Assembly (NCBI GenBank): GCA_945859975.1
Contig: CAMAPH010000052.1
Location: 1 to 14,677, forward strand
Length of the DNA: 14,677 nucleotides
Direction of reading: 5' to 3'
Source of the DNA: Chthonomonas calidirosea
GTDB lineage: Bacteria > Armatimonadota > Fimbriimonadia > Fimbriimonadales > Fimbriimonadaceae
The notes under the pieces are model-generated. The model saw only the letters and a program-made list of their open reading frames with translations. It did no database searches and was not told where the DNA came from. This document shows positions 1 through 14,677 of this stretch, one piece after another. Numbering within the stretch: the stretch's first letter is position 1; each line of letters starts with the position of its first letter. A program made the translations under genes and the position numbers.

Positions 1-107
1 GTTGGCAGGTTTTCTGTGCCGACAACTTTTAGGCCGCCTTTGGTCTGCAAGAAGAACTTCGTAAGCTTGCGGATGACGGCATAGATGAGCGGGTTGCCAA
101 TGATCAC
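1..107 (-). CDS. 5' end of a probable lysophospholipid (1-acyl-sn-glycerol-3-phosphate) acyltransferase, PlsC-like; runs off the left edge
   Basis: Not in the ORF track. Manual translation from GTG at 107 gives (M)IIGNPLIYAVIRKLTKFFLQTKGGLKVVGTENLP. An amphipathic helix followed by 'LKVVGTENLP' matches the typical PlsC N-terminal 'v.G.EnlP' motif that precedes NHxxxxD (outside the window). A TATCAT hexamer lies 8 nt upstream. Confidence 0.65.
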   Translation of the reverse strand, partial: MIIGNPLIYAVIRKLTKFFLQTKGGLKVVGTENLP

Positions 108-157
108 AGACCTTGATGATACTTCCTAACGTTCGCTGAGCCGGGTAAACCTGCGGG

Positions 158-943
158 ATGGCTAACCAACTTGCCGCTCAGATGTACACCCTTCGGGACT
201 TTGTGAAGACGGGAGAGGGGTTGGATGCGGCCTTGCAGACTTTGCACGGCATCGGATATGCCGGGGTTCAGCTTTCGGCGATTGGCTGCATGGATGGCGA
301 GAACCCGGAGGTTTCGGCGGCGACGGCTCGGCAGATGTTGGATAGCCATGGGTTGGTTTGCGCGGCGACGCATCGGCCTTGGGAGCGGTTGCTGCATCAC
401 ACCGATGAGGAGATCGAGTTCCACCTCACTTTGGGCTGCACCTATACGGCGATTGGTGGGCTTTGGGGGACTAACGACGATCCGGGCAAGTACCACGAGT
501 TCGTCGGGGCTTCGATGGCGGTGGCCGAGAAGCTATCGGCGGCGGGGATTCGGTTTGGGTTCCACAACCATGCCCACGAGTTCATTTTGGACCGGCATAC
601 CGGCAAGACAAACTACGACATCATCATCGACGCTCCGCACATGATGCTGGAGATTGATACTTATTGGATTCAGCATGCGGGGATTGATCCGGCGAAGTTT
701 ATGTTGCGGTTCCCGGGTCGGTTGCAGGTGATCCATGTTAAGGATAAGGAAGTCGTTTCTGGCGATGGGCCGGTGATGGCTCCGGTGGGTGAGGGGAACT
801 TGGATTGGGACGCGATTATTGAGGCCGGGAAGGCCGGTGGGGTTGAGTGGTGGACGGTGGAGCAGGATTACTGTCGGCGCGATCCGTTTGACTGCTTGGC
901 TTCGAGTTTCGAGTTCCTCGCTGCGCGCGGACTAGCGGGCTGA
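158..943 (+). CDS. Sugar phosphate isomerase/epimerase, xylose-isomerase-like TIM barrel (AP endonuclease 2 / IolE-like family)
   Basis: 261 aa with the family motifs AQMYTLRD, GYAGVQL, FGFHNHAHEF, LEIDTYW, IHVKD, VGEGNLDW and VEQD. Confidence 0.9.
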   Translation: MANQLAAQMYTLRDFVKTGEGLDAALQTLHGIGYAGVQLSAIGCMDGENPEVSAATARQMLDSHGLVCAATHRPWERLLHHTDEEIEFHLTLGCTYTAIGGLWGTNDDPGKYHEFVGASMAVAEKLSAAGIRFGFHNHAHEFILDRHTGKTNYDIIIDAPHMMLEIDTYWIQHAGIDPAKFMLRFPGRLQVIHVKDKEVVSGDGPVMAPVGEGNLDWDAIIEAGKAGGVEWWTVEQDYCRRDPFDCLASSFEFLAARGLAG

Positions 944-1680
944 TGGTTGTCGAGATTGTCTGCTGTCGCGTGGCCGATGTCGTGGCGGTGCGGCAGGCCG
1001 GGGCGCATCGGGTGGAGCTTTGTTCGGCGATTGAGCTCGGAGGGTTGACGCCTTCTTATGGTTTGACGGTCGATGCCCTTGAGGTTGGGCTGCCGATTTT
1101 GGCGATGATTCGGCCCCGAGGGGCGGGATTTCTTTATGACAACTCCGACTTTCAGGTGATGAAGGCGGACGTTTTGGCTTTGTCTCGCTTGCCGATCGCC
1201 GGGTTTGTGACCGGGATTTTGTTGGCGGATGGTCGGCTGGACTTGGTCCGGATGGCGGAGCTTCGTGCTTTGGCTCCAGATTTGGACTGGGTTTGTCACC
1301 GGGCTTTTGATGCGGTGCCCGATCCGTTTGCGGCTTTGGACCAGTTGGTGGAGCTGGGCTTTACGCGGGTTTTAACCAGCGGCCAGCGGCCTCGGGCTAC
1401 GGAGGCTCTTTCGCTGGTTCGAGAATTGGTTGCCTATGCGGGTGACCGGATTGAGGTTTTGCCGGCGGGCGGCTTGCGGCCGCATAATGTTGCCTCGTTT
1501 GTTGAAGCCACGGGGGTTTCGCAGGTTCATTTGGCTCCGTTTGGCTGGATGCCGGACGTTTCGACGGTCCGCGCCCGGGAGGCGGGGATTGGGTACGGGA
1601 TCCCGGAGATTCCGCGAGAAGACGCTTTTCGGGAGATCGACGGCGACGCGGTGCGGGCGGTTGTGACGGCGTTTTCCTGA
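943..1680 (+). CDS. cutC: Copper homeostasis protein CutC family
   Basis: 245 aa with GAHRVELCSAIELGGLTPS, MIRPRGAGFLY, CHRAFD, RVLTSG and AGGL. TGATG stop/start overlap with the upstream gene at 941-945. Confidence 0.93.
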   Translation: MVVEIVCCRVADVVAVRQAGAHRVELCSAIELGGLTPSYGLTVDALEVGLPILAMIRPRGAGFLYDNSDFQVMKADVLALSRLPIAGFVTGILLADGRLDLVRMAELRALAPDLDWVCHRAFDAVPDPFAALDQLVELGFTRVLTSGQRPRATEALSLVRELVAYAGDRIEVLPAGGLRPHNVASFVEATGVSQVHLAPFGWMPDVSTVRAREAGIGYGIPEIPREDAFREIDGDAVRAVVTAFS

Positions 1681-1843
1681 CCGCGTTTTTTATTATTTAA
1701 TGTTCCCGCCTTAGGCGCGAAACATAAATTTCCGATTTCGGGTCCGTTTTTGGGCATCTGTACCCTTAAGTTTTCGGGGCGAGGAAAAGTAAACCAAGGG
1801 TTTTACGGGGTGCTTTACGGTGGAGCCTGAGCGATTCTTAGGG

Positions 1844-1920
1844 AATATATAATTATATGTAATTATGATATATTGACTTTGTATTGAATTAAAGCAAACA
1901 GAATCTTTGTTAGGTTGTTT
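1844..1920. promoter_or_regulatory. AT-rich tract with a perfect 12-bp palindrome (ATATAATTATAT, 1847-1858), a TAATTAT repeat at 10-bp pitch and TTGACT (1873-1878); possible operator/promoter
   Basis: Read directly from the sequence. No well-spaced -10 follows TTGACT, and the tract lies between convergent genes, so its function is uncertain. Confidence 0.3.
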
Positions 1921-1977
1921 ATCACTCTTCGACCACAGCTATCGGTAACATCGAAATTGTCAGATTAAAGGCGCAAA

Positions 1978-2020
1978 GCCCCTCGGGGGTGGGCTGAAAA
2001 GTGCACGCACAGCCCATACC
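1978..2020. terminator. Stem-loop(s) between the convergent cutC and island operon 3' ends; possible terminator
   Basis: TGGGCTG (1990-1996) pairs with CAGCCCA (2010-2016). An adjacent small hairpin CCCC-TCG-GGGG (1979-1989) is preceded by AAA, which gives a short U-run on the minus strand. There is no strong poly-U tract. Confidence 0.3.
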
Positions 2021-2049
2021 TAGGCACGTGACATTGTCATTTTTTGCAA

Positions 2050-2439
2050 TCAGGCGCTTTCTTGGTCGTCGATCCTCAAAGCGGCTCGTACTCTGACTCT
2101 TTCACCAGTGGAGAGAAGCATTGGATTGCGACAGCTTCTGAGCCACAGCCTTCGGAGCAGGGCAGCGTCGCCTACAGACAGGGCTTCAGCTCGATACCGC
2201 TCTTCGGTCCGCAATAGTGCTTTGGCCTGCTGATCCAAAATCCACTCTGGCAGGCCGCCAAGACCTCTCACAGACACCCCAATTCTGTCCATAAGATCTT
2301 CTCGCTTTAGTTGTGCAACGGCATCGAAGAGGTCGATGGCCAGTTTTCGCACGATAGATCGTCCAGCAGGAAAAAAACTGTTCCGCTCTCGGAACAGAAC
2401 CGCCTCCAGTTCCTCTACGCTTTGCTCCGGATTACTCAC
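2050..2439 (-). CDS. Hypothetical protein, 129 aa, probably alpha-helical; last gene of the operon
   Basis: GTG start 2 nt after the stop of the MotB-like gene, on the same strand. Charged amphipathic helical pattern with no recognisable catalytic motif. Confidence 0.65.
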   Translation of the reverse strand: MSNPEQSVEELEAVLFRERNSFFPAGRSIVRKLAIDLFDAVAQLKREDLMDRIGVSVRGLGGLPEWILDQQAKALLRTEERYRAEALSVGDAALLRRLWLRSCRNPMLLSTGERVRVRAALRIDDQESA

Positions 2440-2441
2440 GC

Positions 2442-3176
2442 CTAGTTCATCTCGTCGTCAGTGTAAAACAGCACAATGTCAACTCTACCGGCAAGTTTAG
2501 AGGTCAACAAACGAGATTTAAAATAGAGTTCGCTGCCTGTTCCATAAGAGATCGCGTATTTACTGGCGATAGCATTGGGTGGTACATCGCCCAGTTCAGG
2601 CTTGGCAATTGCCCCTGCTGAAACAAGGACGTTGTAGACAGCATCAGCGCGTTCGCGAGAATTGAGTAGTGCTTGACGCCGTGCCGCATCACCTACCCCG
2701 AATTCAGCTGGCTCAGTGATCCCGTGTGTGAACAGATAAGCAAATTCTCGAGCGTGCTTTTTGAAGATTCGGGCCATCGCGACAAGGAGTTGCCGACCTG
2801 CGGGCGTTAACTGGGAATTACGTTGCCCTTGAAACATCGGCAAATAAATCTTGATTCGCTGAAAATTCCCATTCTCCCAAATCTGTGCAAGGATTTGCCC
2901 TTTTGAGTCCAGTACCGCGGTGTGACGTGATTCTTTCGACGGACCGCGCTCTTCCGATCTCGTGCCCGACCCAAATATTTTCACACATTCCTCGCGTACT
3001 GCCTTCTGACGATCTTGTCTCGCAACCAGAAGAAGCGCCTGAGAATTGGCAAGAGCGGACACTACTGAGAACATCGCAAAGAAGAATGTCAATCCAATAG
3101 TCATGTCTGTCAGGACCACGAATGGATTTGATCGGAATCCTTCGTTACTACCATTTTTGCGAGCACGCCTTCTCAT
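2442..3176 (-). CDS. MotB/OmpA-like peptidoglycan-binding membrane protein (ZorB-like)
   Basis: Basic N-tail, then a TM segment NPFVVLTDMTIGLTFFFAMFSVV with Asp at the MotB/ZorB/ExbD position (D24, codon 3105-3107). OmpA-like C-domain: F..NSQLTPAGRQLL, THGITE, LNSRERADAVYNVL, ISYG, GRVDIVLF. I prefer the ATG at 3176 (ATGA overlap with the upstream stop, AAGGA 7 nt upstream) to the track's start at 3194. Confidence 0.8.
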   Translation of the reverse strand: MRRRARKNGSNEGFRSNPFVVLTDMTIGLTFFFAMFSVVSALANSQALLLVARQDRQKAVREECVKIFGSGTRSEERGPSKESRHTAVLDSKGQILAQIWENGNFQRIKIYLPMFQGQRNSQLTPAGRQLLVAMARIFKKHAREFAYLFTHGITEPAEFGVGDAARRQALLNSRERADAVYNVLVSAGAIAKPELGDVPPNAIASKYAISYGTGSELYFKSRLLTSKLAGRVDIVLFYTDDEMN

Positions 3177-4753
3177 CGCCGCATCCTTTGCCAAAACGGA
3201 GCACGAACTTCTTCGAGGATTTCATTCAGCTTTCGGTGGACATTATCCGCATTTCCAGCTTGATCTGTGCTTGGGGTGTTGAGCATCGCTATTCGCTGCT
3301 CAATCCGAGCCAGTTGCTCGATCAATAATGAAGTGGGAGAGGAGTCGGCGCTCGTAGTAATCGCCGCGCGGATTGACGATAGAAGTTGCTGCAGTTCAGG
3401 GATCTGGAGTTCAAACTCAGATACACGAGCACTGACCGGCGCGAATGCCGTTTCAATCAAGCCATCTAAGCGCTCTCTGGTAATCCGATCCGGGAGTTCT
3501 GCCGCTTGATCAGCGATTTCGGTAAAAAAAGACTCTAGCTCATCTAGTCGTTTACCTAGACTGACGAGTACATCGTTCGTGCGTTCCGTTTGAGTGTCAA
3601 TGCGCTGCAAAATCGAAGTGAGAACATCATTAACCTCAGCTCGGATGCCGGCAGGTACCGCGCGAGCCGCATCTGCGGCTTCCTTGACGATTTGTTGCAC
3701 CGAGCCCGAATCTTCAAGTACCAACGCCGCTCGCTGAACTGCTTCGGACATCGCGACTGTCTGCTTCTGGACAATCAAAAGCGATGCCTTGGTTTCAGCC
3801 AGCGATTCTTCTGTCACATTACGCGACTCGCTAATAGTTGCAATTTCGGCGTGAATCGCCTGAGAGCCATCTCGAACGGCGCTGGCGATTACTTCAGCAC
3901 CAATTTGAGTGGCACTGCCAAGTCGATCAGCCGCATTGTTCGCGGCGCCCTCGAGTTCCTTGGCCCCTGCACTCAACGCATCGGTCAACCCAACCTGCGC
4001 AGCCCGAAACTCATCTCGCACTCCCTCCAAGCTTACCTTAGAGCTCCTGGCGATAGCCTCAGCTGTCACGGCGGTCGCTTGGAGCTTTTCTTGGATGGTG
4101 TTAAGGGCGGGGACGACACTGGCGATAGAAGCAGCCAACTGATTTGAAACTTTTCGAAGCTCTTCGAACGTTGGATCAAGACTCGATCCAGCACCCGCTG
4201 CTTCCAGCATTTTGGCGTACGCTACTTCTTCAAGAAGTCGCGCTAGTTCCTCTCTGAGGCGGTCAATTTCCGCTAAGAAAGCTTGGGTAACTACGGTGGC
4301 TATAACGCCAGCAATGGCCGCCCAGAACGCATTGCCAAAGTTGCCCAGAACGTCACTTGCTCGCTGGACAAATTGCTGTACTTCCTCACTGGACCTTACG
4401 TTCGGATTGCCGAAAAGGCCTACAGCCTCACGCAGACCTAAGAGGGCACCAACTAATCCGATGTAAACGGCGGATTGGGAAAAGAAACGGGCGATCCCGA
4501 TACGCACAGGAATTGCTTCTTCGCTAGCGATATCAGCTAGTCCGGCTGGATCAATTGCTTGCCGACGCTCCACTAAGGCCCGGATTCCTCTGTACACTCG
4601 GTCCGCAGATGGAGAGTTTACAGAACCTGGACGCCACACTTTAACGGCCTCAGTTTCCTCACGAAGCGCCCGGATCGCTAAAATCTCAATGACGACGACG
4701 TAGACTGTTCCTGCTACTAGAAGCAGTGCGGCTAGAACTGGAATGTTTTCCAT
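3173..4753 (-). CDS. MotA/TolQ/ExbB proton-channel family protein with a long C-terminal helical tail (ZorA-like)
   Basis: TM1 at the N-terminus, TM2 SAVYIGLVGALLGL and TM3 GNFGNAFWAAIAGVIATVV match the MotA/ExbB channel pattern. They are followed by ~360 aa of Ala/Glu/Ser/Leu-rich helical sequence. Translationally coupled to the MotB-like gene. Confidence 0.8.
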   Translation of the reverse strand: MENIPVLAALLLVAGTVYVVVIEILAIRALREETEAVKVWRPGSVNSPSADRVYRGIRALVERRQAIDPAGLADIASEEAIPVRIGIARFFSQSAVYIGLVGALLGLREAVGLFGNPNVRSSEEVQQFVQRASDVLGNFGNAFWAAIAGVIATVVTQAFLAEIDRLREELARLLEEVAYAKMLEAAGAGSSLDPTFEELRKVSNQLAASIASVVPALNTIQEKLQATAVTAEAIARSSKVSLEGVRDEFRAAQVGLTDALSAGAKELEGAANNAADRLGSATQIGAEVIASAVRDGSQAIHAEIATISESRNVTEESLAETKASLLIVQKQTVAMSEAVQRAALVLEDSGSVQQIVKEAADAARAVPAGIRAEVNDVLTSILQRIDTQTERTNDVLVSLGKRLDELESFFTEIADQAAELPDRITRERLDGLIETAFAPVSARVSEFELQIPELQQLLSSIRAAITTSADSSPTSLLIEQLARIEQRIAMLNTPSTDQAGNADNVHRKLNEILEEVRAPFWQRMRR

Positions 4754-4759
4754 CTGCGG

Positions 4760-7700
4760 CTAGGATGCTCCCAGAAGGGTATCGAAGCGAATCCTCTGGC
4801 TACACTGAACATTCGGGCAAATCTCAGGAAGTGCTGGCACCGGTCCGCCGTTGTCAGGCGCGAGGAACTGGTTGCAGTTATCGCATCGCCAAGCTGCAGG
4901 ACTTTCGCCGGATGCAATGGCTTGTATCGCGTTGACCCGGTTGAGATCAAAACTGAATGAACCTAAAATTGCCTTTAGAAGTTCAGGGCGAGTTCTGAGG
5001 TCGTCAAGTTCACGGGTGAACGCTTGCTTGTTATCGACTTCTTTGTTGCCGATAAGCAGGTTCCAATTGTCAACCGCGGCATTAAACGGCGTGATCAGCA
5101 TCGCCGCGCCAGCAACCCCTACGGCGGCAATCTTATCAGTTACTTGGTCTTTCAGGTTTTGAAGGGCCAGTGGATCTCGCCCCAAAATGTAAGCCGCATC
5201 GCTTAGGTCTCGATTGCGGCTAAGGGAGAAGTCTCTGGCAGGATCAAAGGGCGTGGCGAGCGTCCGGAACGTTAGTCCACCCCCCTGTACTGGCTTCACG
5301 ATTCCAAAAGCGGACGCCAGCAGGATGAGGCCGATGTTTCGGCGTTCTTCCCGATCCAAGGGCGCACCATCAAGGCGTTGCCAAACGATGTCCGACCGAG
5401 ACCTGCGTGATGGAGTGTAGTGAGAGATGTGCTCCTCAATACCCTTGATAGAATAGATTGAAAACCCCGATACAGCTTCGGTGAAGAGGATACGATGCGG
5501 GTCACTCGTGTGATCAACAGGAAGTCCAAGTCTCTTCAATGCTGAGTTCACTGACGCCGCATCTCCAACCTGGTCGCCGCCTACGGCATGGAAGTACACC
5601 CGAGCTGGCCGACGAATATTGTCGGGGCGGGTCGGAAAACCAAATTGATTATCGGTAGGGTTTACATCAATGCTGATGCGTCCTGCATCGGCAGCCTTTC
5701 TGAGTTCTGACTCCCAGTTCGGCCACACAAGGAGACGACGCTCGACACGCTCGTCCTTTACTTCCAAGAAAGGTGCGCGCGCATCTTGAATAACCTTATC
5801 CTTATCATCTGCAGTCGCCTTGCGTGGGCGGTCGTAAATACTCAGCCCGTGAGGGCTTAACAGTGCAGTGAACCAATCGTTTTGCTTGTTTAATACAGTT
5901 GTCGCCGCTGTATTTTCGACTTTAGTGTCTTTGAGGTAGCGAACCCACTCCTCTTGGATTGTCTGATTCGGCGTGAAGAGCACGAGTCCGCGTACTAGGG
6001 GACCGCGCGCGTTTCGATCACTGGCTACTTTATCCAAGTCCGCTTTCACGAAGGTGAGGAACTGCGCAAGACCGTTAGGGCCACTGTTTATCCGATCGTA
6101 GAGTGATTTCGCCCTTTCAACAATTCGCTTAAGATTTTCCTTCTCAAATTCCTCGCTCGTTATGATGAGGGTTGATTGCCAATGATCATTGATTTGCTTA
6201 ACCCAACGCGAAGTGATCTCCTGCGGTTTTGGCTTGCGAACAAATGGGTTACAACCTTTCTTTGCTCCCAGCTCTCGCCATATGGAATTTGCCCGATCCA
6301 AGCTTGACTGGGCCTGAGCCCGGATGCCAATGTCCGTCTTCGGACTTTCCAAATCAAGTAGCCTTTGCTCTGAAATAGTGATAAGCTGTTTGAGCAAGCT
6401 GGCAGCATAGTAGACACCATGTGATGGTTGCTGGCAATATTGCGCAACTTTGGCGTCCAGCTTTTTGACCCGGGCGTCAGCAAGTTCGGCCGCTACCTCG
6501 TAGATCGGGTTGCGAAATTCACCAGCATAGTTCTGATCGTGACTTTGCGAAGCTTGCGCAATGTTGTTTTTTATGTGCAGCTCATGTTTATCCCGAGCCG
6601 ATAGATTTCCTTTCAGTGCTGAGCTGGCCGCATTCTGCGCCTCAATGCCTATCCGCTCAAGATAGAGTTGTACTTTCTCGTTGTTGACCATTGCGTGGGC
6701 ATACGAGTCTTCAGAAATTGCTAGCTCGGAGGCAAAGGCAAGAACCTCATTGTCATTTGCTACACGGTTCTGCAAGACGCTTCCAATAGCTGCTCCCGCT
6801 AGGCGAGCTGCCAAACCTTCGATAATATGTTCAGCTGGGAAAAGCACCACCGATGCACCGAGAGACGCATAGGAAAGGGGACGGCCTTTAGTATCGCGCT
6901 CCGAACCATAATTGCCTAACCCGTCAACAAGCTTATTCACGACCCAGTTTCCGCTGTCGGCGACGGAGGTCAAGTGTATGAGTTCAGCTACGGAATGCGC
7001 TAGCGGCGAGAATGCCTCTGGTTTTGTATCTCCAGTTTCTGGCTGCAGTAAGGCGACAATATCGAATGGTCTTGTTTGGCTTCGGACTGTATTAAGCCGA
7101 TTGGGAAACTTCACTTCGTAAGGCTTTCCAATGTGATAATGATTCAACTCCGTGAGAGCAGCAAGTGCATTTCCCCAGTGAACGGGTTCTGCATATGAAG
7201 AATGTGGAATGGTGAGGTAGGCGTCCACCTTGACTCGGCTGCCTACACCTGAAACGCTTTTCAGGAAATAGCCAATGTCTATGAAACTACCGCTATTGGT
7301 TCCACCCGTTAGCGATCCCACAATAAAAACTTGAATGCTATGCTCGCCCCCAACCGATCCGAAGGAAACACGTTGTTCACGTCCGTCCTTGTTGTTCCCT
7401 ATGGCTTTGCTTGCATCAGCTTCACTCAAGCCATCCAGATCATGGAACTGCGCTAGAAAGTCAGATAGGAACACAGCATGATTATCTTCATGCAGGAAAC
7501 ATAGCCGTCCGGTAGGGCGCGAATTGTTTGCGCCATGAAGTGGTGCTCCGCCCGCGATCATCACTTGGCGAATTTCACCATCTGCCCAGGTGGAAAACGC
7601 GATCTTCTCATCGTAGGCAGCAGGTGTGCGGAAGTATCGGTCCCAAGTGTCGTTGCCAATACCCAAGTGACGAACCAAGCCCTTACGTGTCAATGGACTT

Positions 7701-7849
7701 GATTGCTTCTGCTCAGTTTCGTAGACGAGAAACTTCAGCCACGGAGTTCGGTCAAGTCCACCATGGTCTGCCTCGATGCGTTGCACAAGATGCTGTGCCA
7801 CATCGTGGCCGAACGAACCCATACCGATAACAATCGTCTTGACCGCCAT
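4760..7849 (-). CDS. Tubulin/FtsZ-like protein (Tubulin_2 / FtsZl1-type) with a long helical C-terminal region and a terminal Zn ribbon
   Basis: TIVIGMGSFG, FLVYETE, GANNSRPTGRL, GSLTGGTNSGSFIDIGY, NALAALTELNHY and RPFD follow the order of Tubulin_2 motifs. The C-terminus has CDNC-x18-CPNVQC. 1029 aa. Confidence 0.85.
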   Translation of the reverse strand: MAVKTIVIGMGSFGHDVAQHLVQRIEADHGGLDRTPWLKFLVYETEQKQSSPLTRKGLVRHLGIGNDTWDRYFRTPAAYDEKIAFSTWADGEIRQVMIAGGAPLHGANNSRPTGRLCFLHEDNHAVFLSDFLAQFHDLDGLSEADASKAIGNNKDGREQRVSFGSVGGEHSIQVFIVGSLTGGTNSGSFIDIGYFLKSVSGVGSRVKVDAYLTIPHSSYAEPVHWGNALAALTELNHYHIGKPYEVKFPNRLNTVRSQTRPFDIVALLQPETGDTKPEAFSPLAHSVAELIHLTSVADSGNWVVNKLVDGLGNYGSERDTKGRPLSYASLGASVVLFPAEHIIEGLAARLAGAAIGSVLQNRVANDNEVLAFASELAISEDSYAHAMVNNEKVQLYLERIGIEAQNAASSALKGNLSARDKHELHIKNNIAQASQSHDQNYAGEFRNPIYEVAAELADARVKKLDAKVAQYCQQPSHGVYYAASLLKQLITISEQRLLDLESPKTDIGIRAQAQSSLDRANSIWRELGAKKGCNPFVRKPKPQEITSRWVKQINDHWQSTLIITSEEFEKENLKRIVERAKSLYDRINSGPNGLAQFLTFVKADLDKVASDRNARGPLVRGLVLFTPNQTIQEEWVRYLKDTKVENTAATTVLNKQNDWFTALLSPHGLSIYDRPRKATADDKDKVIQDARAPFLEVKDERVERRLLVWPNWESELRKAADAGRISIDVNPTDNQFGFPTRPDNIRRPARVYFHAVGGDQVGDAASVNSALKRLGLPVDHTSDPHRILFTEAVSGFSIYSIKGIEEHISHYTPSRRSRSDIVWQRLDGAPLDREERRNIGLILLASAFGIVKPVQGGGLTFRTLATPFDPARDFSLSRNRDLSDAAYILGRDPLALQNLKDQVTDKIAAVGVAGAAMLITPFNAAVDNWNLLIGNKEVDNKQAFTRELDDLRTRPELLKAILGSFSFDLNRVNAIQAIASGESPAAWRCDNCNQFLAPDNGGPVPALPEICPNVQCSQRIRFDTLLGAS

Positions 7850-7858
7850 GACCTGCGC

Positions 7859-7874
7859 ATTCTACACCATAGCA
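7859..7874 (-). promoter_or_regulatory. Candidate internal promoter (-10 elements) upstream of the tubulin-like gene
   Basis: The minus strand reads aaTGcTATGGTgTAGAATgcgcaggtcATG: an extended -10-like TGnTATGGT plus TAGAAT 9 nt before the ATG, in a 26-nt gap with no well-placed SD. Confidence 0.35.
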
Positions 7875-7875
7875 T

Positions 7876-8994
7876 TTAGGGGGCTAGTTCAAGTTTGATC
7901 TCAAGGGTCCGAGACTTGCCGTTCTCGTCTTTCATGGGTAGCTTTCCGCTCTCGGTCACTAACCGGTCACCATCGCAACTCCAAACCCCATCAAGAATCT
8001 CAAGCCCCTTTGAAGTTGCTTTGAGCGAGAAAAGTCTGGCCGCAGGAAAATTCTCGCCATCGAGCATCCTTTTTTCATCAGCCTCTTCAGCCTTGCCGCC
8101 GGGACCGACGAAGGCGATCACCTGGCCCTTACGGACGGTCGCTTCTGAAGAGCGCGCCACGGAGACAATCCAGTTCTTTCCGCTTCCGGTTAGTCCAGAT
8201 TTGGCTACGGCAATACCTATGCCAGCCAATGCGGCGAAGCCCATGATCCCGAACAGAATCTCCCACATCGGAAGCTGGGGGCCACCGCCGTTCAGCGATT
8301 CTGGACCGTACAAAAAGACTTGAAAAGTTTGATTGGGCAAGCCAGTCTTGAATGGCGTTGCAACTGGGTCGTAAGCGATTAACCCGAGTTTGTCCACTCC
8401 CGCCGTACGCTGATCTTGCCTGCGGGTCTCCGCATCTTCCTCCGTTCCTGGAGACTCACTTATTCCAATGTCAGTAAATTGAATAATCAGAGTGGGAACC
8501 TGCGATGGGCCAAGGATCTCCTGAAGAGCTTCTCGTGCGGCAATGTTGCTATGCCCACCTCGCTTAGGATAATCGGTCTTGCCGTCGCCGCGTATCTGAA
8601 ACGGTGTCTTTGGAAATGCCCTTTCAATTTGAACAATGCTCTCCTTGCTTAGTTGTACGCCGGAAACGCACTGACCTGCTTTTGAGTAAATGTCAAGCTG
8701 GTATGGATAGAACCAAACTTCGTGCGCACGACCATCTTTCAGACGATTCGTGAGAAAAGTGCGCGTCTCAATAATCGCAGACTCAAGATACGCGGACTTG
8801 TTGTTTACTTGAGACGAGTTAAATAAAAGTGCAAAGCGCCAAGGCTTTCGCCACAAATCTTCGGACTTGCCACCTTGTGAACGTATTTGGGACTCTAACG
8901 ACTTCTCAATCCATTCGGAAGCTCTGATTGTTTTCTGAGCTTGCGCTTGAACTGAGAGGGCGAGTATGGCGGCACACAGAAATGGAAGTCGCAT
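7876..8994 (-). CDS. Single-pass membrane protein: signal peptide, degenerate vWA-like extracytoplasmic domain, TM helix, cytoplasmic beta-rich (FHA-like?) domain
   Basis: Signal peptide MRLPFLCAAILALSVQAQA (AQA cleavage site). vWA-like elements FALLFNSSQ (DxSxS position), GGHSNIAAREAL and LIIQFTD. TM LPMWEILFGIMGFAALAGIGIAVA. The ~105-aa tail is made of short beta strands. The CDS is confident; the domain calls are tentative. Confidence 0.65.
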   Translation of the reverse strand: MRLPFLCAAILALSVQAQAQKTIRASEWIEKSLESQIRSQGGKSEDLWRKPWRFALLFNSSQVNNKSAYLESAIIETRTFLTNRLKDGRAHEVWFYPYQLDIYSKAGQCVSGVQLSKESIVQIERAFPKTPFQIRGDGKTDYPKRGGHSNIAAREALQEILGPSQVPTLIIQFTDIGISESPGTEEDAETRRQDQRTAGVDKLGLIAYDPVATPFKTGLPNQTFQVFLYGPESLNGGGPQLPMWEILFGIMGFAALAGIGIAVAKSGLTGSGKNWIVSVARSSEATVRKGQVIAFVGPGGKAEEADEKRMLDGENFPAARLFSLKATSKGLEILDGVWSCDGDRLVTESGKLPMKDENGKSRTLEIKLELAP

Positions 8995-8999
8995 TGCTT

Positions 9000-10313
9000 T
9001 TAGTTGTCCACAATATCATATGAGACGTGTATCGTCTGATCTCTCATGAACGCGAACACCTCCACGGATTGACGACGAATCACCAGGTTCGCGGTTTCCC
9101 AAGGCGCTGCAAGAGCGTTTTTGGGAAGATTCAGTTCAGTTTCGCTTCCGTTCCTCGGGTCGGCTAAGAGTACGCGTGGTCGACCATCTCCTTGGACTGC
9201 AGTCAGCACGCACAGTCCGTTTGGTGTACTAAGACCTGCGATAGCAAGGATCCTTCCGTTAGGGTGTCGCCAGCCATGCTGTGCAGCACTTCCATCGGAC
9301 AGTCTGACCTGCCATATGGACTCATTTTCCCGTCGCGGAAGAAGCCATACGGATTCATCTACTTCGTCCACGAACGTATCAACATCGCCCACGCCGCGTG
9401 CCGGTAGGCTCGCCCACGGTTGCGCTTTCGGTAAAGCCGACACAATTGAGGTTGTATCTCCCACTCGCCTAACACCATATAAGTCGCCGCGATGAAGGAA
9501 GATGCTGCTAAGTTCGGAGTGAGTTGGCTCGCCGACCCGACCCATATCGATCCGGACGAGATTGCACCCGTAAAGCAAGTATACTGCGTTGTGGTCCGCA
9601 ACGGCGACGCCCACATCGGCCTTGGGAAGGGTTGATATCACATTCCCGTTTCGGTCCAATATCTCGCCTGAGAAGGCAGCACCAACCCAGCCATCAGGAC
9701 CAACGGTATGAGTAACAACTCGCTGATCTGTAACAACTTCCGATTGGCGGCCTGCAAGCGGGATTCTCTCTACTCCGTTAGTGGTTGCAAGATATAAATC
9801 TCCTGCTATAGCTATTGGAGCCGGGTTGCTCACTACATCATGGTTCGTAGCTGCTCGTGACGATTCCGAGCCGATACGTTGAACCGTGGCCTCGTCTACC
9901 AGTGCAATTGTGCGTCCAAGGTCCAGAGCGAGGAAGCCTCGCCGCCATACCTGCACGTTTCCATACTTGACACTGGGCAAGGCTGGAACCGCAAACGAAC
10001 GAGTACCGTTTTCTGGACCGGTCGGAGTGGACCACCGCAGAGGCAATGGCTCTAGGGCAGAACGATTGCTGCATTCGCAGACGCGTGCTGTCGCGTTGTG
10101 GATTCGCCCGCAGCCTTCTGTCGCGCAGACCCGAAGTGGAGTTGCACAATGGGCGCACCTTCCGTCATCCAGTTCTCCACCCCCCACTAGCGTTTGTGCT
10201 GCGCACACGGGACATGGCTGTCGGAGCGCGTATCCACATGCGATACAAAACCGGGCCCCGGGAATGACTTCCGGCGTTTCACAGCCAGGTCGAATGCAAT
10301 TGATGTTAGTCAT
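9000..10313 (-). CDS. Multiple (double) zinc-ribbon protein with a C-terminal beta-propeller-like domain
   Basis: Six Cys pairs in the first ~80 aa (CIRPGC, CIAC, CPVC, CAHC, CATEGC, CEC). Then WSTPTGPENGTRS, which resembles the leader of PQQ/BamB-type propellers, followed by repeated short beta strands (GDLYLAT, NAVYLLY, GDLYGVR, ESVWLLP). No signal peptide. Confidence 0.7.
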   Translation of the reverse strand: MTNINCIRPGCETPEVIPGARFCIACGYALRQPCPVCAAQTLVGGGELDDGRCAHCATPLRVCATEGCGRIHNATARVCECSNRSALEPLPLRWSTPTGPENGTRSFAVPALPSVKYGNVQVWRRGFLALDLGRTIALVDEATVQRIGSESSRAATNHDVVSNPAPIAIAGDLYLATTNGVERIPLAGRQSEVVTDQRVVTHTVGPDGWVGAAFSGEILDRNGNVISTLPKADVGVAVADHNAVYLLYGCNLVRIDMGRVGEPTHSELSSIFLHRGDLYGVRRVGDTTSIVSALPKAQPWASLPARGVGDVDTFVDEVDESVWLLPRRENESIWQVRLSDGSAAQHGWRHPNGRILAIAGLSTPNGLCVLTAVQGDGRPRVLLADPRNGSETELNLPKNALAAPWETANLVIRRQSVEVFAFMRDQTIHVSYDIVDN

Positions 10314-10341
10314 TGGAAAAGATCGCTGTCGTGCCTGCTGA

Positions 10342-11181
10342 TCAGGTCATGTGAATCGGCAATGGTGGTGTAGCGGGATGTGACATTGAATCGCGCGCTG
10401 ATAGTCTTACTACCGCGCGTTCTAGTACAGATCCTTTCCTCAAGCCACGGCTAACAACGTGACGAATGAACTCTCCCCCTATCGGGCTTCCAGGCTCTGT
10501 AATGTGTAAAGTTCCAATCATCCGTTCACCTATAACGGGCTCAATCAGTTCGTACCCGGCATTGGTGATCACCCGCCTTACAAGGATTTGAATGGCTCTT
10601 CCGGCGTCTGCGTACGGTTCATACATTCCGGATGGATCAACGGGGAACCGGTATTCGTCGAACGCTAACAATACAAGGTCCTGAGTAACGTTGAATGCTT
10701 CCCTACTGGCCGCTATTTCGACCAATTCGGAAACTTGCTGCACCCATCGTCGATGCCACTCCGAAACAGGATCCCCACCGGTGAGCGAAGCTCGATGGCG
10801 ACTGAGTTCATCGATTGGATCCGCGGCAGCGTGATCAACGAGTGGTAATTTGACGTCACCAGTTTCTGCAATGAGAGCGTTTGCCAGTTTATTCAATTGG
10901 GTAGAAATTTCTATACTTTGACTGTCAATGAGATGATTAGCGTATGCGGTGATGGCCATTTCAAACACACGGACCGCCGGGACATGGGCACCGTTAGCGG
11001 TCAGACCGGTCTGCTGTAATACTTTGCGAATTTCCGGCCAACCGCTGAGCCCTTCCGCGTGACCGAACGACAGCGCAACTTCAACCTGATGCAGAAATGG
11101 TAATTTATATTGCGTTTGCAATTGTTTCGTGGTCGCCTTAAGCGCTTCGGCAACGGAATATAGCTCCAGTGTGTCGCTCAT
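10342..11181 (-). CDS. Helical protein with a C-terminal GrpE-like (nucleotide exchange factor) beta head
   Basis: The C-terminal GYELIEPVIGE..H...IRHVVSRGLRKGSVLERAVVRLS parallels the GrpE pattern G.E.I...H...I..V...GY.....RA.V.V. ATGA overlap with the Hsp70-like gene at 11178-11181. Confidence 0.65.
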   Translation of the reverse strand: MSDTLELYSVAEALKATTKQLQTQYKLPFLHQVEVALSFGHAEGLSGWPEIRKVLQQTGLTANGAHVPAVRVFEMAITAYANHLIDSQSIEISTQLNKLANALIAETGDVKLPLVDHAAADPIDELSRHRASLTGGDPVSEWHRRWVQQVSELVEIAASREAFNVTQDLVLLAFDEYRFPVDPSGMYEPYADAGRAIQILVRRVITNAGYELIEPVIGERMIGTLHITEPGSPIGGEFIRHVVSRGLRKGSVLERAVVRLSARDSMSHPATPPLPIHMT

Positions 11182-13514
11182 ATGGCTCCCGAAAAAATAC
11201 TCTCACGTGGAGAATCGGACTGATTCATATATACGTCAACGCTCCCATGCACCCATACTGTGGTGAATGATGTCCGGCCAGCCGGCCACTTGAAGGCGGC
11301 TTGGGCAATATTGTACCACTTGTTGTCGTCTCCCAGGGTCTCGAGCCGTACCTGAGCTGGTACCGAGTCTTCGCGGCGTAGCAGTTTAGGCTCGGACAGA
11401 TGAGTCGTTATGAGTGATGGAGAAAGAACCGAGAGTACGATTTCAGCTTCTCCCTCGGATCCCAACAAAATTCTCATCCGTTCCGATGCAAGTGGTGGCT
11501 TTAGTTCGCCGCTTGCGAGTCCTTGAACAACTGCAAGGCGTCTTAAAGGATCGGGAACCTCAATCATATGGGCAACATTGTCCGGCCTCTCCCTGAACGT
11601 AGGGATCAGGCTGTTGCCACCGACAAAGAAAATCCACTTAGTTGCGTGTCCATGGTTCGCCTGTTCTTCGACGAGGGAGAATAACTGGGCGTTGAACTGC
11701 TTGCTAAGTGCGTTGCGAGCGGCGTCGATGTCGCGCTGAGTTACATCCAGGTTTCCGAGCCGCGATGCGCGAAAAAACCCTTGCCCATTTTGAGCCAGCT
11801 CCAATTTGACACGCTCGATTCGTTGAATACTAGAGATGTCATGGAGATGCCAATAGCGTTCCGCATTGATATCGCTCCGGTATGGCATCAATTCTGGGAA
11901 CCCGCTCCAGTCTGCCGCTGGACAGCCCGTCAGCTCTGAAAGCACAGCTTGTGCATCAGGACCAGTGCCTGTGGCAATCAGCCAATAATAAATTACCGTT
12001 GCGCCAATTAGGCGAGTCACATCTCCGCCGCCAAAAGAATACGCCGACGCAACTACGCCAGCCTGATGTCGTTCTTTCAGCTCGACGTGGCGGTGAGTTG
12101 GTGCTTCGAGGCGAAGTGAACCACCTTCTCGTCTGAAAGTACCGAAGCATACATCTGTGGTGCCACCGCCTCCATCTACGACCATTACGCGATCTCCGTC
12201 CTCTAAGCCGGAAATATCATTATTTTCCTGAGTAAGAATTGCTCTCAAGGCAGCTTCTGGTTCTGGAATAAAGCTGAGACTCCCCCGGCCCGGAATGCCC
12301 GCTATTAGAGCAGCCTGTCTTAATCGCTCGATGTATTGCGTACGCATCGAATCATCAAGTGCCGGGATAGACAGCCGCCAGTCAATATTAAGAGACTCAA
12401 TCGTTGAATTCGCAATGTGTTCCAAAACCCCCTTAATCCGGTCCGAAACTAGTCTGCGTAAATACCATGCAACCACCTCGGTTGCTTTTAGTCCGGTAGC
12501 AACAATGAATTCGTTTTCTGCCAAAAGGTACTTTTTCAGTTCGACGAGCAACCTTCCGGTCCCACGCTCGTTGTACTTCCATTCCGCTTCCTCACCGTAC
12601 GACCATGTAGCACGATCTGCTTCGTCCGGAATCCAGATTAATGTATTACTTCGAGGAACCCCAAGCTCTCTTGGTTGGTCGTTGCCTAACAGATCGCGGA
12701 AGAAAACTGAGGTGCCTGTAGTGCCGAAATCAATTCCTACGACGAACCGTGGCTCCTCGACAACACCTAGGACAGGATCTGGAATGAGCTTAACAACAAC
12801 TTCCTCCACCAGTCCAGATGAGGAAAGTACGAGTTCTGCTCGCTCAGCGTTATCACTGGCATACACGGTGTACTCTTGCGGATGATTTGACCTGATGCGC
12901 GTATTTTCTGGCCCTTTAAAGTGCCATCCGTTGCCTTTAACGGCCGCGGAAACATCGGCCATGTAGGAATCCTTTACAGCAACAGTGATATTTACTTTTC
13001 TACCGGGCCTTACTTTCACACGCTCTGGAAGCACAACTAGCCGTGCTCGATTTGTACTGCTATTTATGTGCACAACATGCTCGCGTTCTTCACGAGCCAC
13101 CTGTCGGCCATGACTTTCAAATACCTGATCGGACGCGCGCCGCCAGACTTGTTCAACTCGGGCCCGAATCTCTCCACTGTGTAGGCCCTGGTCGAGAGTG
13201 AATGATATGTTTCGGGACCCTGGCTTGGAGGCATCTAGCTGGCTCTGGGAAAGGTGAACTCCTGTCGAACGAAGTGTGATGGTGGAGTGTGGCGCAGGAA
13301 CTTCTACCTGCAATGTTGCCCGACCTTCTCCCGTTCCATCCGCAACGACAGTGTCCGTGGTCCAGGCGAAAGCTAGACGCCGAGAACCACATTGTGGGCA
13401 ATATCCCCAGTCTGGCTGAAGCTCCTGCTGGCATTCGTTGTTATGGAGATCTCGGCACTTCACCACGAAGTGAACGTACCCCACAGGCCGGGCCGCGAGG
13501 CGTTTTGACACCAT
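11178..13514 (-). CDS. Hsp70/DnaK-like (actin-fold) ATPase with an N-terminal Zn ribbon and beta-sandwich-like region; not housekeeping DnaK
   Basis: VGIDFGTTGT (phosphate-1), LSIPA, PEPEAAL, VVDGGGGTTD (phosphate-2), FGGGDV, IERVKLEL, FVGGNSLIP (adenosine) and AVVQGLA are all present. N-terminal C-x7-C-x10-CPQC. An alternative GTG start lies at 13466. Confidence 0.88.
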   Translation of the reverse strand: MVSKRLAARPVGYVHFVVKCRDLHNNECQQELQPDWGYCPQCGSRRLAFAWTTDTVVADGTGEGRATLQVEVPAPHSTITLRSTGVHLSQSQLDASKPGSRNISFTLDQGLHSGEIRARVEQVWRRASDQVFESHGRQVAREEREHVVHINSSTNRARLVVLPERVKVRPGRKVNITVAVKDSYMADVSAAVKGNGWHFKGPENTRIRSNHPQEYTVYASDNAERAELVLSSSGLVEEVVVKLIPDPVLGVVEEPRFVVGIDFGTTGTSVFFRDLLGNDQPRELGVPRSNTLIWIPDEADRATWSYGEEAEWKYNERGTGRLLVELKKYLLAENEFIVATGLKATEVVAWYLRRLVSDRIKGVLEHIANSTIESLNIDWRLSIPALDDSMRTQYIERLRQAALIAGIPGRGSLSFIPEPEAALRAILTQENNDISGLEDGDRVMVVDGGGGTTDVCFGTFRREGGSLRLEAPTHRHVELKERHQAGVVASAYSFGGGDVTRLIGATVIYYWLIATGTGPDAQAVLSELTGCPAADWSGFPELMPYRSDINAERYWHLHDISSIQRIERVKLELAQNGQGFFRASRLGNLDVTQRDIDAARNALSKQFNAQLFSLVEEQANHGHATKWIFFVGGNSLIPTFRERPDNVAHMIEVPDPLRRLAVVQGLASGELKPPLASERMRILLGSEGEAEIVLSVLSPSLITTHLSEPKLLRREDSVPAQVRLETLGDDNKWYNIAQAAFKWPAGRTSFTTVWVHGSVDVYMNQSDSPRESIFSGAI

Positions 13515-13585
13515 TGTAATGGCGTCGAGTAGCTCACACGGGCTGAACCGTCGGCGGAGAAATCCATCGCTGCCACGTCAGTGGA

Positions 13586-14677
13586 TTACAGCTGGCGGAA
13601 GTTCACTCCGGCCTGAGTCAACCGATCCAGGTGGAAAGGCAACCGAACCTGGAAACCGGCCCAATCCCGCACCGACTTCGGCGACCAGAGAACCTCCGCC
13701 ATGGCCGACGCTCGCGGGAACATCATGTACTGCGCTTTTCTCGCCGAAGGGATGTATTCCGTCCAGAGGTTGGCTTGGCCGCCTAGGATGTGTTTGGCTT
13801 CTTCGGGGGTGAGCGAAGCGGGGACGGGCTCGAACGAGTAGACCTTCTCCAGCGGCAAGTAGCCGCCGATGGCCAACGGCTCGCTGGCGGAGGGGGCTTG
13901 GTAGTAGTCGAAATAGGCGAAGTCGGTGGGGGACATGACGACGTCGTGGCCTTCTTTGGCGGCCTCGATTCCACCGGCCATTCCGCGCCAGCTCATGACG
14001 GCGGCGCCGGGGGCGAGGCCGCCTTCTAGGATTTCATCCCAGCCGATCAGGCGTCGGCCTTTCTTTTCGAGCCACTTATCCATTTGGCGGATGAACCAGC
14101 TTTGGAGTTCATCTTCGTTCTTCAGGCCGCGTTCTTTGATGAGGGCCTGGGCGCGGGGGCTGGCTTTCCACTGGGTTTTCGGGCACTCGTCGCCGCCGAT
14201 GTGGATGAACTTGCTGGGGAAGAGGTCAAGGACTTCGGTGAGGACGTCTTGCAAGAAGCTGACGGTTTTTTCTTCGGGGTTAAAGACGTTCTCGAAAACG
14301 CCCCACTTGGTGCCGACTTCGATTTGGGTGCCGAGGTTGCCGAGTTCGGGATAGGCGGCGATGGCGGCTTGGGCGTGGCCGGGCATTTCGATTTCCGGCA
14401 CGACATTGATGTGTCGGTCGGCAGCGTATTTCACCACGTCGCGAATGTCTTGTTGGCTGTAGAAGCCGCCGTGCGGGGTGCCGTCGTACTTGCCATCGCT
14501 ATACCGGCCGAGCATGGTTTCTTTCCGCTTGCTGCCGATTTCGGTGAGCTTCGGATACTTCTTGATCTCGATTCGCCAGCCCTGGTCGTCGGTGAGGTGC
14601 CAGTGGAACGAGTTCAGCTTGTGCATCGCCATGAGGTCGATGAAGCGGTAGATTTCGCCCTTTTGCATGAAGTGGCG
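13586..14677 (-). CDS. Beta-N-acetylhexosaminidase, glycoside hydrolase family 20 (5'-truncated by the window edge)
   Basis: The frame is open to the edge (RHFMQK..., the end of the DxxRHF motif), so the ATG at 14668 is internal. Motifs: HWHLTDDQGWR, VPEIEMPGH, catalytic HIGGDE, IGWDEI, YFDYYQ, GGQANLWTEYI and FPR. Confidence 0.95.
   Translation of the reverse strand, partial: RHFMQKGEIYRFIDLMAMHKLNSFHWHLTDDQGWRIEIKKYPKLTEIGSKRKETMLGRYSDGKYDGTPHGGFYSQQDIRDVVKYAADRHINVVPEIEMPGHAQAAIAAYPELGNLGTQIEVGTKWGVFENVFNPEEKTVSFLQDVLTEVLDLFPSKFIHIGGDECPKTQWKASPRAQALIKERGLKNEDELQSWFIRQMDKWLEKKGRRLIGWDEILEGGLAPGAAVMSWRGMAGGIEAAKEGHDVVMSPTDFAYFDYYQAPSASEPLAIGGYLPLEKVYSFEPVPASLTPEEAKHILGGQANLWTEYIPSARKAQYMMFPRASAMAEVLWSPKSVRDWAGFQVRLPFHLDRLTQAGVNFRQL

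Follow-up and report, generated by a model that had tools for sequence, protein, structure and literature searches.

What would a bacterium do with an operon that holds a tubulin-like protein, an Hsp70-type chaperone with a GrpE-like partner, and a motor-like membrane pair? The question is raised by eight genes (g1 to g8) on the minus strand of a 14,677-nucleotide stretch of DNA from an uncultured lake bacterium assigned to Chthonomonas calidirosea (phylum Armatimonadota; assembly GCA_945859975.1, contig CAMAPH010000052.1, positions 1 to 14,677; the whole stretch is called the window below, and the genome it comes from G000). We read the operon as an accessory, horizontally acquired, envelope-spanning NTPase machine that acts in conflict with phage or other mobile DNA, and we put the probability of this reading at roughly 0.45. 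The genes and other features of the window on which the argument draws are the following.

g1: 11178..13514, minus strand, 778 amino acids (aa); zinc ribbon and Hsp70-type nucleotide-binding domain
g2: 10342..11181, minus strand, 279 aa; helical N-terminal part and GrpE-like C-terminal beta domain
g3: 9000..10313, minus strand, 437 aa; zinc ribbons and an all-beta, propeller-like region
g4: 7876..8994, minus strand, 372 aa; signal peptide, vWA fold, transmembrane (TM) helix, and FHA-like domain
g5: 4760..7849, minus strand, 1029 aa; FtsZl1/Tubulin_2 protein with a C-terminal zinc ribbon
g6: 3173..4753, minus strand, 526 aa; MotA/ExbB/ZorA-like protein with a long tail
g7: 2442..3194, minus strand, 250 aa (TTG start); MotB/ZorB-like protein with an OmpA-like domain
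g8: 2050..2439, minus strand, 129 aa (GTG start); small predicted helical protein
Terminator-like hairpin: 2371..2397, minus strand; 8-bp stem with five G-C pairs, followed by seven T
Variable island: 1811..13589, 11.8 kb; delimited by blastn against the sister genome G014

The genes are tightly packed, with spacings from g1 to g8 of −4, 28, 5, 26, 6, −22, and 2 nucleotides (nt), the first of these being a 4-nt overlap of g1 and g2. With the ATG at 3176 as the start of g7 in place of the TTG at 3194, the g7 product has 244 aa and the −22 is replaced by a 4-nt ATGA overlap with the g6 stop codon; we consider this start the more likely one. Counts of promoter-like and terminator-like sites in the region were at or below shuffle expectation. 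Among sequencing runs, the complete DNA was present in the probable source sample only. Among the operon proteins of the window, Pfam detects g5 alone above threshold, with a sub-threshold OmpA match for g7, and PADLOC gives weak matches to ZorA2 (E = 0.0063) and ZorB1 (E = 0.008) and none for g1 to g5 or g8. Because off-the-shelf libraries see so little, the calls for g1 to g4, g6, and g7 are based on orthologue profiles, predicted folds, and motifs. A preliminary description of the window, made from the DNA alone, had recognized eight coupled minus-strand genes; their coordinates and tight spacing are confirmed, and their order recurs in other genomes. Its domain calls stand for g1 to g7, the g3 model being weak; g8 shows no sequence conservation.

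The arrangement was traced in relatives by scanning contigs from genomes and metagenomes with an alignment of g5, followed by iterative hidden Markov model (HMM) searches over 8,562 open reading frames (ORFs); a contig scan with the single g5 protein had found no relative. All seven recognizable families (g1 to g7) occur in identical order in four further loci (L007, L009, L075, and L164), the order being shared with Armatimonadota and with metagenome contigs, and in one of them (L075) the sizes of all eight ORFs are mirrored. Identities across the loci range from 18 to 48% for the seven families. Because seven families recur in this identical order, the gene arrangement is not due to chance, and the co-occurrence across genomes that the preliminary description had proposed to look for does exist for seven of the eight genes. 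Six of the seven families are found in a fifth locus (L079), and partial copies lie on the short contigs L006, L074, L076, L077, and L078. None of the other families accompanies the FtsZl1-type match in 108 of the 123 loci with such a match; these 108 are mostly from Gemmataceae and similar lineages or on short contigs.

Across the phylum, the g1 profile matched in 42 of 401 genomes (32 of the 301 high-quality ones). Armatimonadota loci around g1-family genes (n = 20) hold g5 in 15, g3 in 16, and g2 in 15 cases, and, of the five that lack g5, three are short contigs (<8 kb). The g6-g7 pair was found by profile in 3 of these 20 loci (L164, L165, and L167); in L169, a pair consisting of a 690-aa ZorA1-like protein and a ZorB1-like protein (E = 1.9e-16) follows the tubulin gene. 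One close relative (L008/L160) stops after g5, where a convergent gene for a protein of the metallo-beta-lactamase fold follows. Since g6 and g7 are rare among loci that keep g1 to g5, and L008 ends at g5, g1 to g5 form the conserved core of the system, and the motor-like pair g6/g7 is an optional module. On two metagenome contigs (L083 and L110), a g1-family gene has one or two FtsZl1-type genes of a more distant kind nearby, in opposite orientation, which hints that the association of Hsp70 with tubulin reaches further than the present operon type.

The cluster is accessory, dispensable, mobile, and horizontally acquired. The tubulin-like gene is present in 5 of 41 related genomes, G000 included, and in 3 of the 24 other genomes of the genus. 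Positions 1 to 1810 and 13590 to 14677 of the window match the sister genome G014 at 94.3% and 95.2%, respectively (blastn), and nothing in between is matched; at the same site, between CutC and GH20 genes, G014 carries other DNA, of 7.9 kb versus 11.8 kb in the window. This cargo (L207, G014:C1, 6738 to 14681; GC content, 0.45 to 0.50) encodes an amidase_3 protein, a HicB-like protein, and a Zeta_toxin/AAA_33-like protein, in addition to six ORFs of 125 to 570 aa without a family. The CutC-GH20 site behaves as an integration hot spot. GC content inside the island is 0.49 to 0.55, compared to 0.58 to 0.60 in the flanks, and GC content at third codon positions (GC3) is 0.47 to 0.52 in the operon, compared to 0.79 in the neighboring GH20 gene. 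Neither a tRNA nor repeats, whether direct or inverted, were found at the island ends. A 370-nt non-coding region (window positions 1681 to 2049) separates the convergent CutC and g8 genes and contains an AT-rich tract at about 1860 to 1930; because the homology to G014 ends at 1810, the island junction lies inside this region. The operon is patchily distributed and absent from the sister genome, and a core, syntenic position across the lineage, which the preliminary description had named as a possible counterargument, does not apply. GH20 was considered as a member of the operon and rejected, given its GC3, its retention in G014 without the operon, and its absence from related loci.

The most readily recognized protein of the operon is g5, which matches the Pfam family Tubulin_2 (PF13809) over residues 6 to 355 with 123.1 bits (E = 2.1e-35; cut-off, 27). 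In an alignment of eight sequences, the T1 loop residues G9, G11, S12, and G14 and the T4 loop residues G182, G183, T184, S186, and G187 are invariant, as are the four cysteines of a C-terminal zinc ribbon (C989, C992, C1011, and C1016), which is preceded by a long, mostly helical region. A search of PDB sequences returned no solved relative of g5, just 14-3-3 at an E value of about 0.08. The protein is rare, forming six clusters, its own included, in a collection of 5.8 billion proteins, with identities of 41 to 48%.

For g4, an AlphaFold2 (AF2) model with a mean predicted local distance difference test (pLDDT) score of 67 begins with a signal peptide, continues with an alpha/beta domain and a TM helix (residues 244 to 263 in the model; 241 to 268 in the wider delimitation), and ends in a beta domain. 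Residues 45 to 237 align with vWA folds in all 50 matches listed by VIA, a structure search independent of Foldseek (Z = 10.0 to 7.4); the Pfam VWA models do not match g4, and the MIDAS motif is degenerate (N-S-S-Q-V instead of DxSxS). The C-terminal domain (approximately residues 275 to 370) gave Foldseek matches to the FHA domains 2lc1 (probability, 0.99; E = 6e-3) and 6ccd (probability, 0.98; E = 2e-2). In our reading of the alignment by eye, the canonical phosphothreonine-binding residues are not visible in this FHA-like domain. The model predicts a periplasmic vWA domain and a cytoplasmic FHA-like domain.

The relationship of g1 to Hsp70 proteins emerged from a profile of four orthologues. 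It yielded 99 matches in the PDB at E ≤ 1, of which the best 60 were all Hsp70-type ATPase domains; the top match is the DnaK structure 2v7y (E = 7.7e-6), in an alignment that stops at DnaK residue 413. The single g1 sequence had found no relevant PDB match, and the Pfam HSP70 and GrpE models do not match g1 and g2 of the window; a weak match to a YegD-type protein (E = 0.032) was also seen for g1. Among 12 orthologues, D262-G264-T265, K327, E418-P419, D447-x-G-x-G-T-T-D454, and G632-G633 are invariant or nearly so, and the phosphate-1, connect-1, phosphate-2, and adenosine motifs of the actin-fold ATPase domain of Hsp70 proteins are all present. An N-terminal zinc ribbon (C20, C28, C39, and C42) is nearly invariant in the same orthologues. 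The protein is beta-rich up to about residue 250, continues with the nucleotide-binding domain (approximately 255 to 670), and ends in a short beta-rich C terminus. About 110 residues remain after the ATPase domain; neither a canonical substrate-binding domain nor a lid was recognized in g1, and Pfam found no J-domain (DnaJ) protein in the operon. With 196 representatives at E ≤ 1e-30, mostly of 750 to 900 aa, in a library of 1.84 billion representatives, the g1 family is real but small.

The g2 family profile aligned with a housekeeping GrpE alignment, built from eight proteins of G000 and its relatives, over 71 columns (hhalign probability, 93.2%; E = 2.9e-7). The alignment is confined to the C-terminal beta domain (approximately residues 195 to 261), with which GrpE contacts the Hsp70 ATPase domain, and the conserved part of g2 is its last ~70 residues. 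The N-terminal part, where GrpE has a long dimerizing helix and a four-helix bundle, is variable and predicted to be helical in g2 and does not align with GrpE. Two g2 orthologues match Pfam GrpE weakly (L007, E = 0.013; L167, E = 0.001), and no usable match to g2 was found among PDB sequences. The window copy has no TM segment. A complex prediction for g1 residues 250 to 672 with g2 residues 150 to 279 scored 0.00, which is informative neither way. Ordinary DnaK and GrpE proteins are encoded elsewhere in G000, so the pair is, as had been proposed, a dedicated and divergent copy besides the housekeeping one. In L007, a second, shorter GrpE-like paralogue follows the first (5918 to 6571; 217 aa; HMM E = 3.9e-10), and several relatives have much longer g2 proteins (436 to 667 aa) with N-terminal extensions.

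The core protein g3 has a four-cysteine zinc ribbon at its N terminus (NF045510; E = 7e-6) and two to three zinc ribbons in total; its orthologues match Pfam DZR and Zn_Ribbon_1, with eight invariant cysteines. Its AF2 model is poor (pLDDT, 51) and all-beta beyond the ribbons. VIA aligned residues 266 to 437 with propeller blades (Z = 10.6 to 8.6), and judging from the model a propeller is plausible for this region, although not secure.

The optional module consists of two predicted membrane proteins. Three hydrophobic segments (residues 1 to 31, 95 to 114, and 142 to 163) are found in g6, followed by a tail of 357 residues that is rich in Ala, Leu, and Glu and contains 9 Pro and 14 Gly. Orthologues of g6, assigned from synteny and an HMM built on the window copy, pass the cut-off of 22.9 bits for Pfam MotA_ExbB, a domain that spans the last two TM helices, in L009 (35.0 bits) and L007 (27.9 bits) and fall below it in L006 (19 bits). 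PADLOC ZorA models match 9 of 10 g6 orthologues (E = 3e-9 to 2e-3), the window copy matching ZorA2 only; PADLOC contains no generic MotA/ExbB models, and a best match to ZorA cannot separate ZorA from other 5:2 stators. Against the PDB, g6 gave weak matches to TolQ, PomA, and MotA-family proteins (E = 0.13 to 0.5) among coiled-coil proteins. In g7, an invariant Asp lies in the single TM helix in four of four orthologues, within an NPFVV..D motif; it is D30 when counted from the TTG and D24 when counted from the ATG, so that the key aspartate D24 of the preliminary description holds with the ATG start at 3176. The Pfam OmpA match of g7 reaches 19.1 bits (E = 0.0017), below the cut-off of 27.2, and Atlas groups g7 with the OmpA/MotB clusters on the basis of both features (0.93) and structure (TM-score, 0.68/0.84 over 186 residues). 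PDB sequences gave no usable match to g7. In an hhalign comparison of the g7 family with the ZorB1-like protein of L169, the TM region alone aligned (22%).

Whether g8 belongs to the system is uncertain. ORFs of 132 to 182 aa lie at the equivalent position in L075, L009, L006, and L007, with no invariant column and identities of 14 to 20%, and neither HMM nor tblastn searches found a relative of g8. Its codon-position GC content is coding-like and resembles that of the other operon genes, and its model in Atlas, where no feature match was obtained, looks like helical repeats. The terminator-like hairpin begins 45 nt past the g7 stop codon, within the reading frame of g8; terminator-like sites in the region number 13, against a shuffle expectation of 13.0, and only the position of this hairpin is notable.

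How much of this composition has been described before? FtsZl1 was defined, its association with vWA proteins, OmpA-family proteins, kinases, and a diverged GTPase was described, and the operons were proposed to act in membrane remodeling (Makarova and Koonin 2010, PMC2875224); the GTPase and protein kinases are named there as frequent, not universal, partners. In Additional file 5 of that study, FtsZl1 is followed immediately by a MotA/TolQ/ExbB membrane protein and an OmpA family protein in both Deinococcus radiodurans and D. deserti, and the supplement also has GrpE adjoining FtsZl1 in Chloroflexus aggregans and DnaK near FtsZl1/vWA genes in Magnetospirillum (PMC2875224). The OmpA proteins are read there as beta-barrel porin-like, and the available portion of the main text does not discuss a MotA-like neighbor or a stator-type motor. 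In the Deinococcus-type operon (DR_0540 to DR_0536; Deide_2p00760 to 2p00800), as it stands on D. deserti plasmid 2, the gene order matches g4-g5-g6-g7. The 418-aa protein whose gene precedes FtsZl1 there is related to g4 (hhalign probability, 93.2%; E = 3e-7; HMM E = 4e-5), the FtsZl1-linked 411-aa protein to g6 (97.9%; E = 3e-13; HMM E = 2e-27), and the OmpA family protein to g7 (59.9%; E = 8.7e-5 over 183 columns; HMM E = 5e-4). By these profile comparisons, the g4-to-g7 half of the operon is the Deinococcus-type FtsZl1 module; the upstream protein was hypothetical in the 2010 listing, and its homologue g4 has a vWA fold and an FHA-like domain in the predicted structure. No relative of g1, g2, or g3 was found in the 19 kb covered at the D. 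deserti locus. Relatives of g5 are located on four Deinococcus plasmids, one of them mobilizable.

Like the FtsZl1 operons of 2010, the window operon has a vWA protein and an OmpA-family protein; unlike many of them, it has no GTPase or kinase, since no such Pfam family is found in the eight window proteins. A second kinship is to the GAP1-N2 loci of DO-GTPase conflict systems, which are characterized by one or two DO-GTPase genes with a GAP1 protein (GAP1-N, -M, and -C domains) encoded downstream and in which a tubulin and vWA theme accounts for ~52% and an HSP70 and GrpE theme for ~14% of the loci; the two themes do not overlap and occur mainly in Firmicutes and Actinobacteria (Kaur et al. 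2020, PMC7159879). NTP-dependent multimeric assemblies were proposed there as effectors, zinc ribbons being common and many parts membrane linked (PMC7159879). In contrast to those systems, both themes stand in one Armatimonadota operon here, together with a MotAB-like pair, whereas the term "MotA" occurs 0 times in the available text of PMC7159879. DO-GTPase1 and DO-GTPase2 (PF19975 and PF19993) have no match in G000; the PF19993 control was positive in Corynebacterium glutamicum, and the PF19975 half of the test is weak, its control having been silent in all control genomes. The DO-GTPase and GAP1 families of Pfam likewise matched neither the window proteins nor 88 neighboring ORFs, in a library whose GAP1 models are unconfirmed. 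The absence of a separate GTPase, as claimed beforehand, thus holds for the two DO-GTPase families in the genome and for Pfam families in the operon.

In the Zorya system, experiments have shown ZorAB to be a motor that senses phage and recruits effectors through its tail; a length of ~70 nm is given for ZorA, and residues 483 to 739 were deleted as its tail tip (Hu et al. 2024, PMC11946911). Zorya is the one precedent understood by experiment for a long-tailed MotAB-like pair. In architecture, a MotA-like membrane domain with a long, probably helical tail, g6 fits ZorA, and g7 has the TM aspartate and the OmpA-like peptidoglycan-binding domain of ZorB, although its match to ZorB1 reaches only an E value of 0.008. 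Unlike in Zorya, the tail of g6 is shorter, at 357 residues, and the effectors ZorC/ZorD, ZorE, and others are absent from the window by PADLOC, which yields nothing beyond the weak ZorA and ZorB matches, just the partial result that had been foreseen. The soluble effectors are ZorC/ZorD in type I, ZorE in type II, and ZorF/ZorG in type III Zorya. In PADLOC searches of the L075 versions of g1 to g5 and g8, no match was found either. With DnaK and GrpE the operon shares the Hsp70 ATPase motifs (g1) and the GrpE C-terminal beta domain (g2); it differs from them in the added zinc ribbon and beta-rich front end of g1 and in that no lid or J-protein was detected.

Our literature searches found no experimentally characterized system of this composition, in agreement with what the preliminary description had supposed, no bench study of FtsZl1, no work among the papers listed that pairs Zorya with tubulin, FtsZ, or Hsp70, and nothing relevant on Tubulin_2 with vWA. 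The system is not the wholly undescribed one that this description had suspected, since its parts were predicted before, in the FtsZl1 operons of 2010 and the DO-GTPase themes of 2020. A merger of FtsZl1 and MotAB themes is likewise present in the window, but it had been tabulated for Deinococcus in 2010. Already known, all as predictions only, are therefore the FtsZl1-MotA-OmpA arrangement of Deinococcus and the tubulin-vWA and HSP70-GrpE themes of DO-GTPase systems; new is the fusion, without a GTPase, of the Deinococcus-type FtsZl1-vWA-MotAB module with an Hsp70-GrpE module.

The neighborhoods of related loci hold several genes of interest. Cas6b (E = 1.5e-53) and a WYL-domain protein are encoded ~2 kb downstream of the MotB-like gene in L165 (526 to 2248), an Abi_C-domain protein directly downstream of the operon in L009 (16200 to 17147), and a Hypoth_Ymh/HEPN-type protein (Aga_HEPN; E = 1.4e-18) near the operon in L172 (5488 to 6000). 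In L177 (8343 to 9788), a 481-aa endonuclease/exonuclease/phosphatase (EEP) protein (E = 1.8e-26) occupies the g4 slot between the zinc-ribbon and tubulin-like genes, and from its family it is a possible enzymatic effector. Trypsin-like peptidases are found in L178 and L179 and an NOV_C protein in L176; L170 has, between g3 and g5 (3913 to 11521), a PAS histidine kinase, a LuxR-type response regulator, and two unknown proteins of 966 and 448 aa.

We favor a role in conflict because of the accessory and mobile behavior of the operon, the kinship of each of its modules to predicted or proven conflict systems, and these variable inserts in relatives. In such a machine, g5, as a tubulin-like FtsZl1 GTPase, would undergo GTP-dependent assembly at the membrane, and the membrane-spanning g4 would couple the periplasm, through its vWA domain, to the cytoplasm, through its FHA-like domain. 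A role as a zinc-ribbon/propeller adaptor may fall to g3, and since g1, g3, and g5 all carry zinc ribbons, the three may have a contact in common. The putative private Hsp70-type ATPase g1 would load, remodel, or dismantle the tubulin-like assembly and would be recycled by g2 as a GrpE-like exchange factor; the zinc-ribbon/beta front end of g1 may replace the missing substrate-binding domain. The optional pair g6/g7 would serve as an input module, being by homology to MotAB and ZorAB a candidate 5:2 proton-driven stator unit that the OmpA-like domain of g7 would anchor to peptidoglycan; the tail of g6, if it is one continuous helix, could carry a signal or torque ~40 to 50 nm into the cytoplasm. 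Stoichiometry, polymerization, binding partners, trigger, and the anti-invader role are what we infer in this scheme. The idea of the preliminary description that the motor tail recruits the tubulin-like protein may describe this optional input; it does not cover the core logic, because the motor pair is optional and present in few loci.

A more specific version of the conflict reading can be stated, which we consider unlikely as it stands. Here, a Zorya-type motor together with the vWA/FHA sensor would trigger a tubulin-like assembly at an envelope breach instead of nucleases, Hsp70/GrpE would keep the polymer disassembled or clear it, and immunity would come from cytoskeletal containment or membrane sealing. 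If this were true, containment or sealing by a tubulin-like polymer would be an effector class not known in bacterial defense.

Several observations weigh against a conflict role. No recognizable effector (nuclease, NADase, pore, etc.) is found in the window, whose flanks are metabolic (GH20, CutC, and an AP_endonuc_2 family protein). In the flanks of 11 related loci (81 ORFs), clear defense matches occur in 2 (L165 and L172) and the rest are housekeeping-like; enrichment in defense islands, which the preliminary description had proposed to test, is not shown by these 11 loci. Window g6 has no Pfam MotA_ExbB match at E ≤ 0.01, and the SMC-like models LmuB and JetC match as well, so that matches to the ZorA tail may reflect coiled-coil composition. 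In G000 (95.8% complete), no protein matches Pfam MotA_ExbB at E ≤ 0.001, and an ordinary flagellar stator, ExbB, or TolQ was not detected; with no other MotA/ExbB protein at hand, the g6/g7 pair could serve a general envelope role. Divergence of the operon was considered as a sign of an arms race and rejected, as the flanking CutC is equally diverged within the genus (just 40 to 47% identical in most of its genomes); because the genus is deep, divergence of the operon is no such sign.

Some of these observations also fit an accessory membrane-remodeling or cytoskeletal system that has no part in conflict, a reading that we think less likely but a strong rival. Here the task of the tubulin-like protein would be to shape the membrane, to constrict it, or to form vesicles from it, with the vWA protein and the peptidoglycan-anchored motor as its link to the envelope and Hsp70/GrpE as the means of recycling the polymer. 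The operon context of FtsZl1 was interpreted in this way in the available parts of the 2010 study (Makarova and Koonin 2010, PMC2875224). Apart from the chaperones, all components are associated with the membrane or the envelope, and the lack of an effector in the operon, the metabolic flanks, and the lack of another Pfam-detectable MotA/ExbB/TolQ protein in G000 all agree with it. It sits less well with the patchy distribution of the operon (5 of 41 relatives; 42 of 401 genomes in the phylum), with a near-identical sister that lacks the operon and has toxin-antitoxin-like cargo at the site, with a composition foreign to the flanks, and with the plasmid-borne relatives in Deinococcus. For these reasons, a dispensable mobile trait fits better than a cell-biological one, although a niche-specific envelope function is still compatible with them.

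A proton-driven transport or surface-motility device, with a tubulin-like filament as the track along which the MotAB-like unit would move cargo or as the support against which it would turn, seems to us improbable. The presence of a MotA/ExbB-like protein and an OmpA-like anchor directly downstream of a filament-type protein in two phyla speaks for it, and Agl/Glt gliding motors on MreB and the Tol-Pal and TonB energizers offer an analogy. The motor pair is, however, missing from L008 and from most loci that keep g1 to g5 and cannot be what drives the conserved function, and no conserved outer-membrane or secreted cargo genes adjoin the operon. Least probable by far is a chance or recently shuffled adjacency with some over-read ORFs (g3 and g8), which the absence of conservation and the terminator-like hairpin in g8 and the poor model of g3 might suggest. 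For g1 to g7 it is largely refuted: the seven families, at 18 to 48% identity, recur in order in four or more other loci and in part in another six, and the stop codon of one gene and the start codon of the next either overlap or are at most 28 nt apart.

The conflict reading, and the operon itself, bear on a protein family, FtsZl1, that has diverged further than any other branch of the tubulin/FtsZ superfamily. The operon is a compact version that can be cloned whole, combining a tubulin-like GTPase, a private Hsp70 cycle, and a predicted 5:2 ion motor, each of which can be addressed with point mutants. If these parts cooperate, the function of FtsZl1 and the control of prokaryotic tubulin-like assemblies by Hsp70 would become testable, as would the question of what ZorAB-like motors signal to without a nuclease. 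The optional motor on a five-gene core would then offer a natural experiment on modular sensor-effector coupling.

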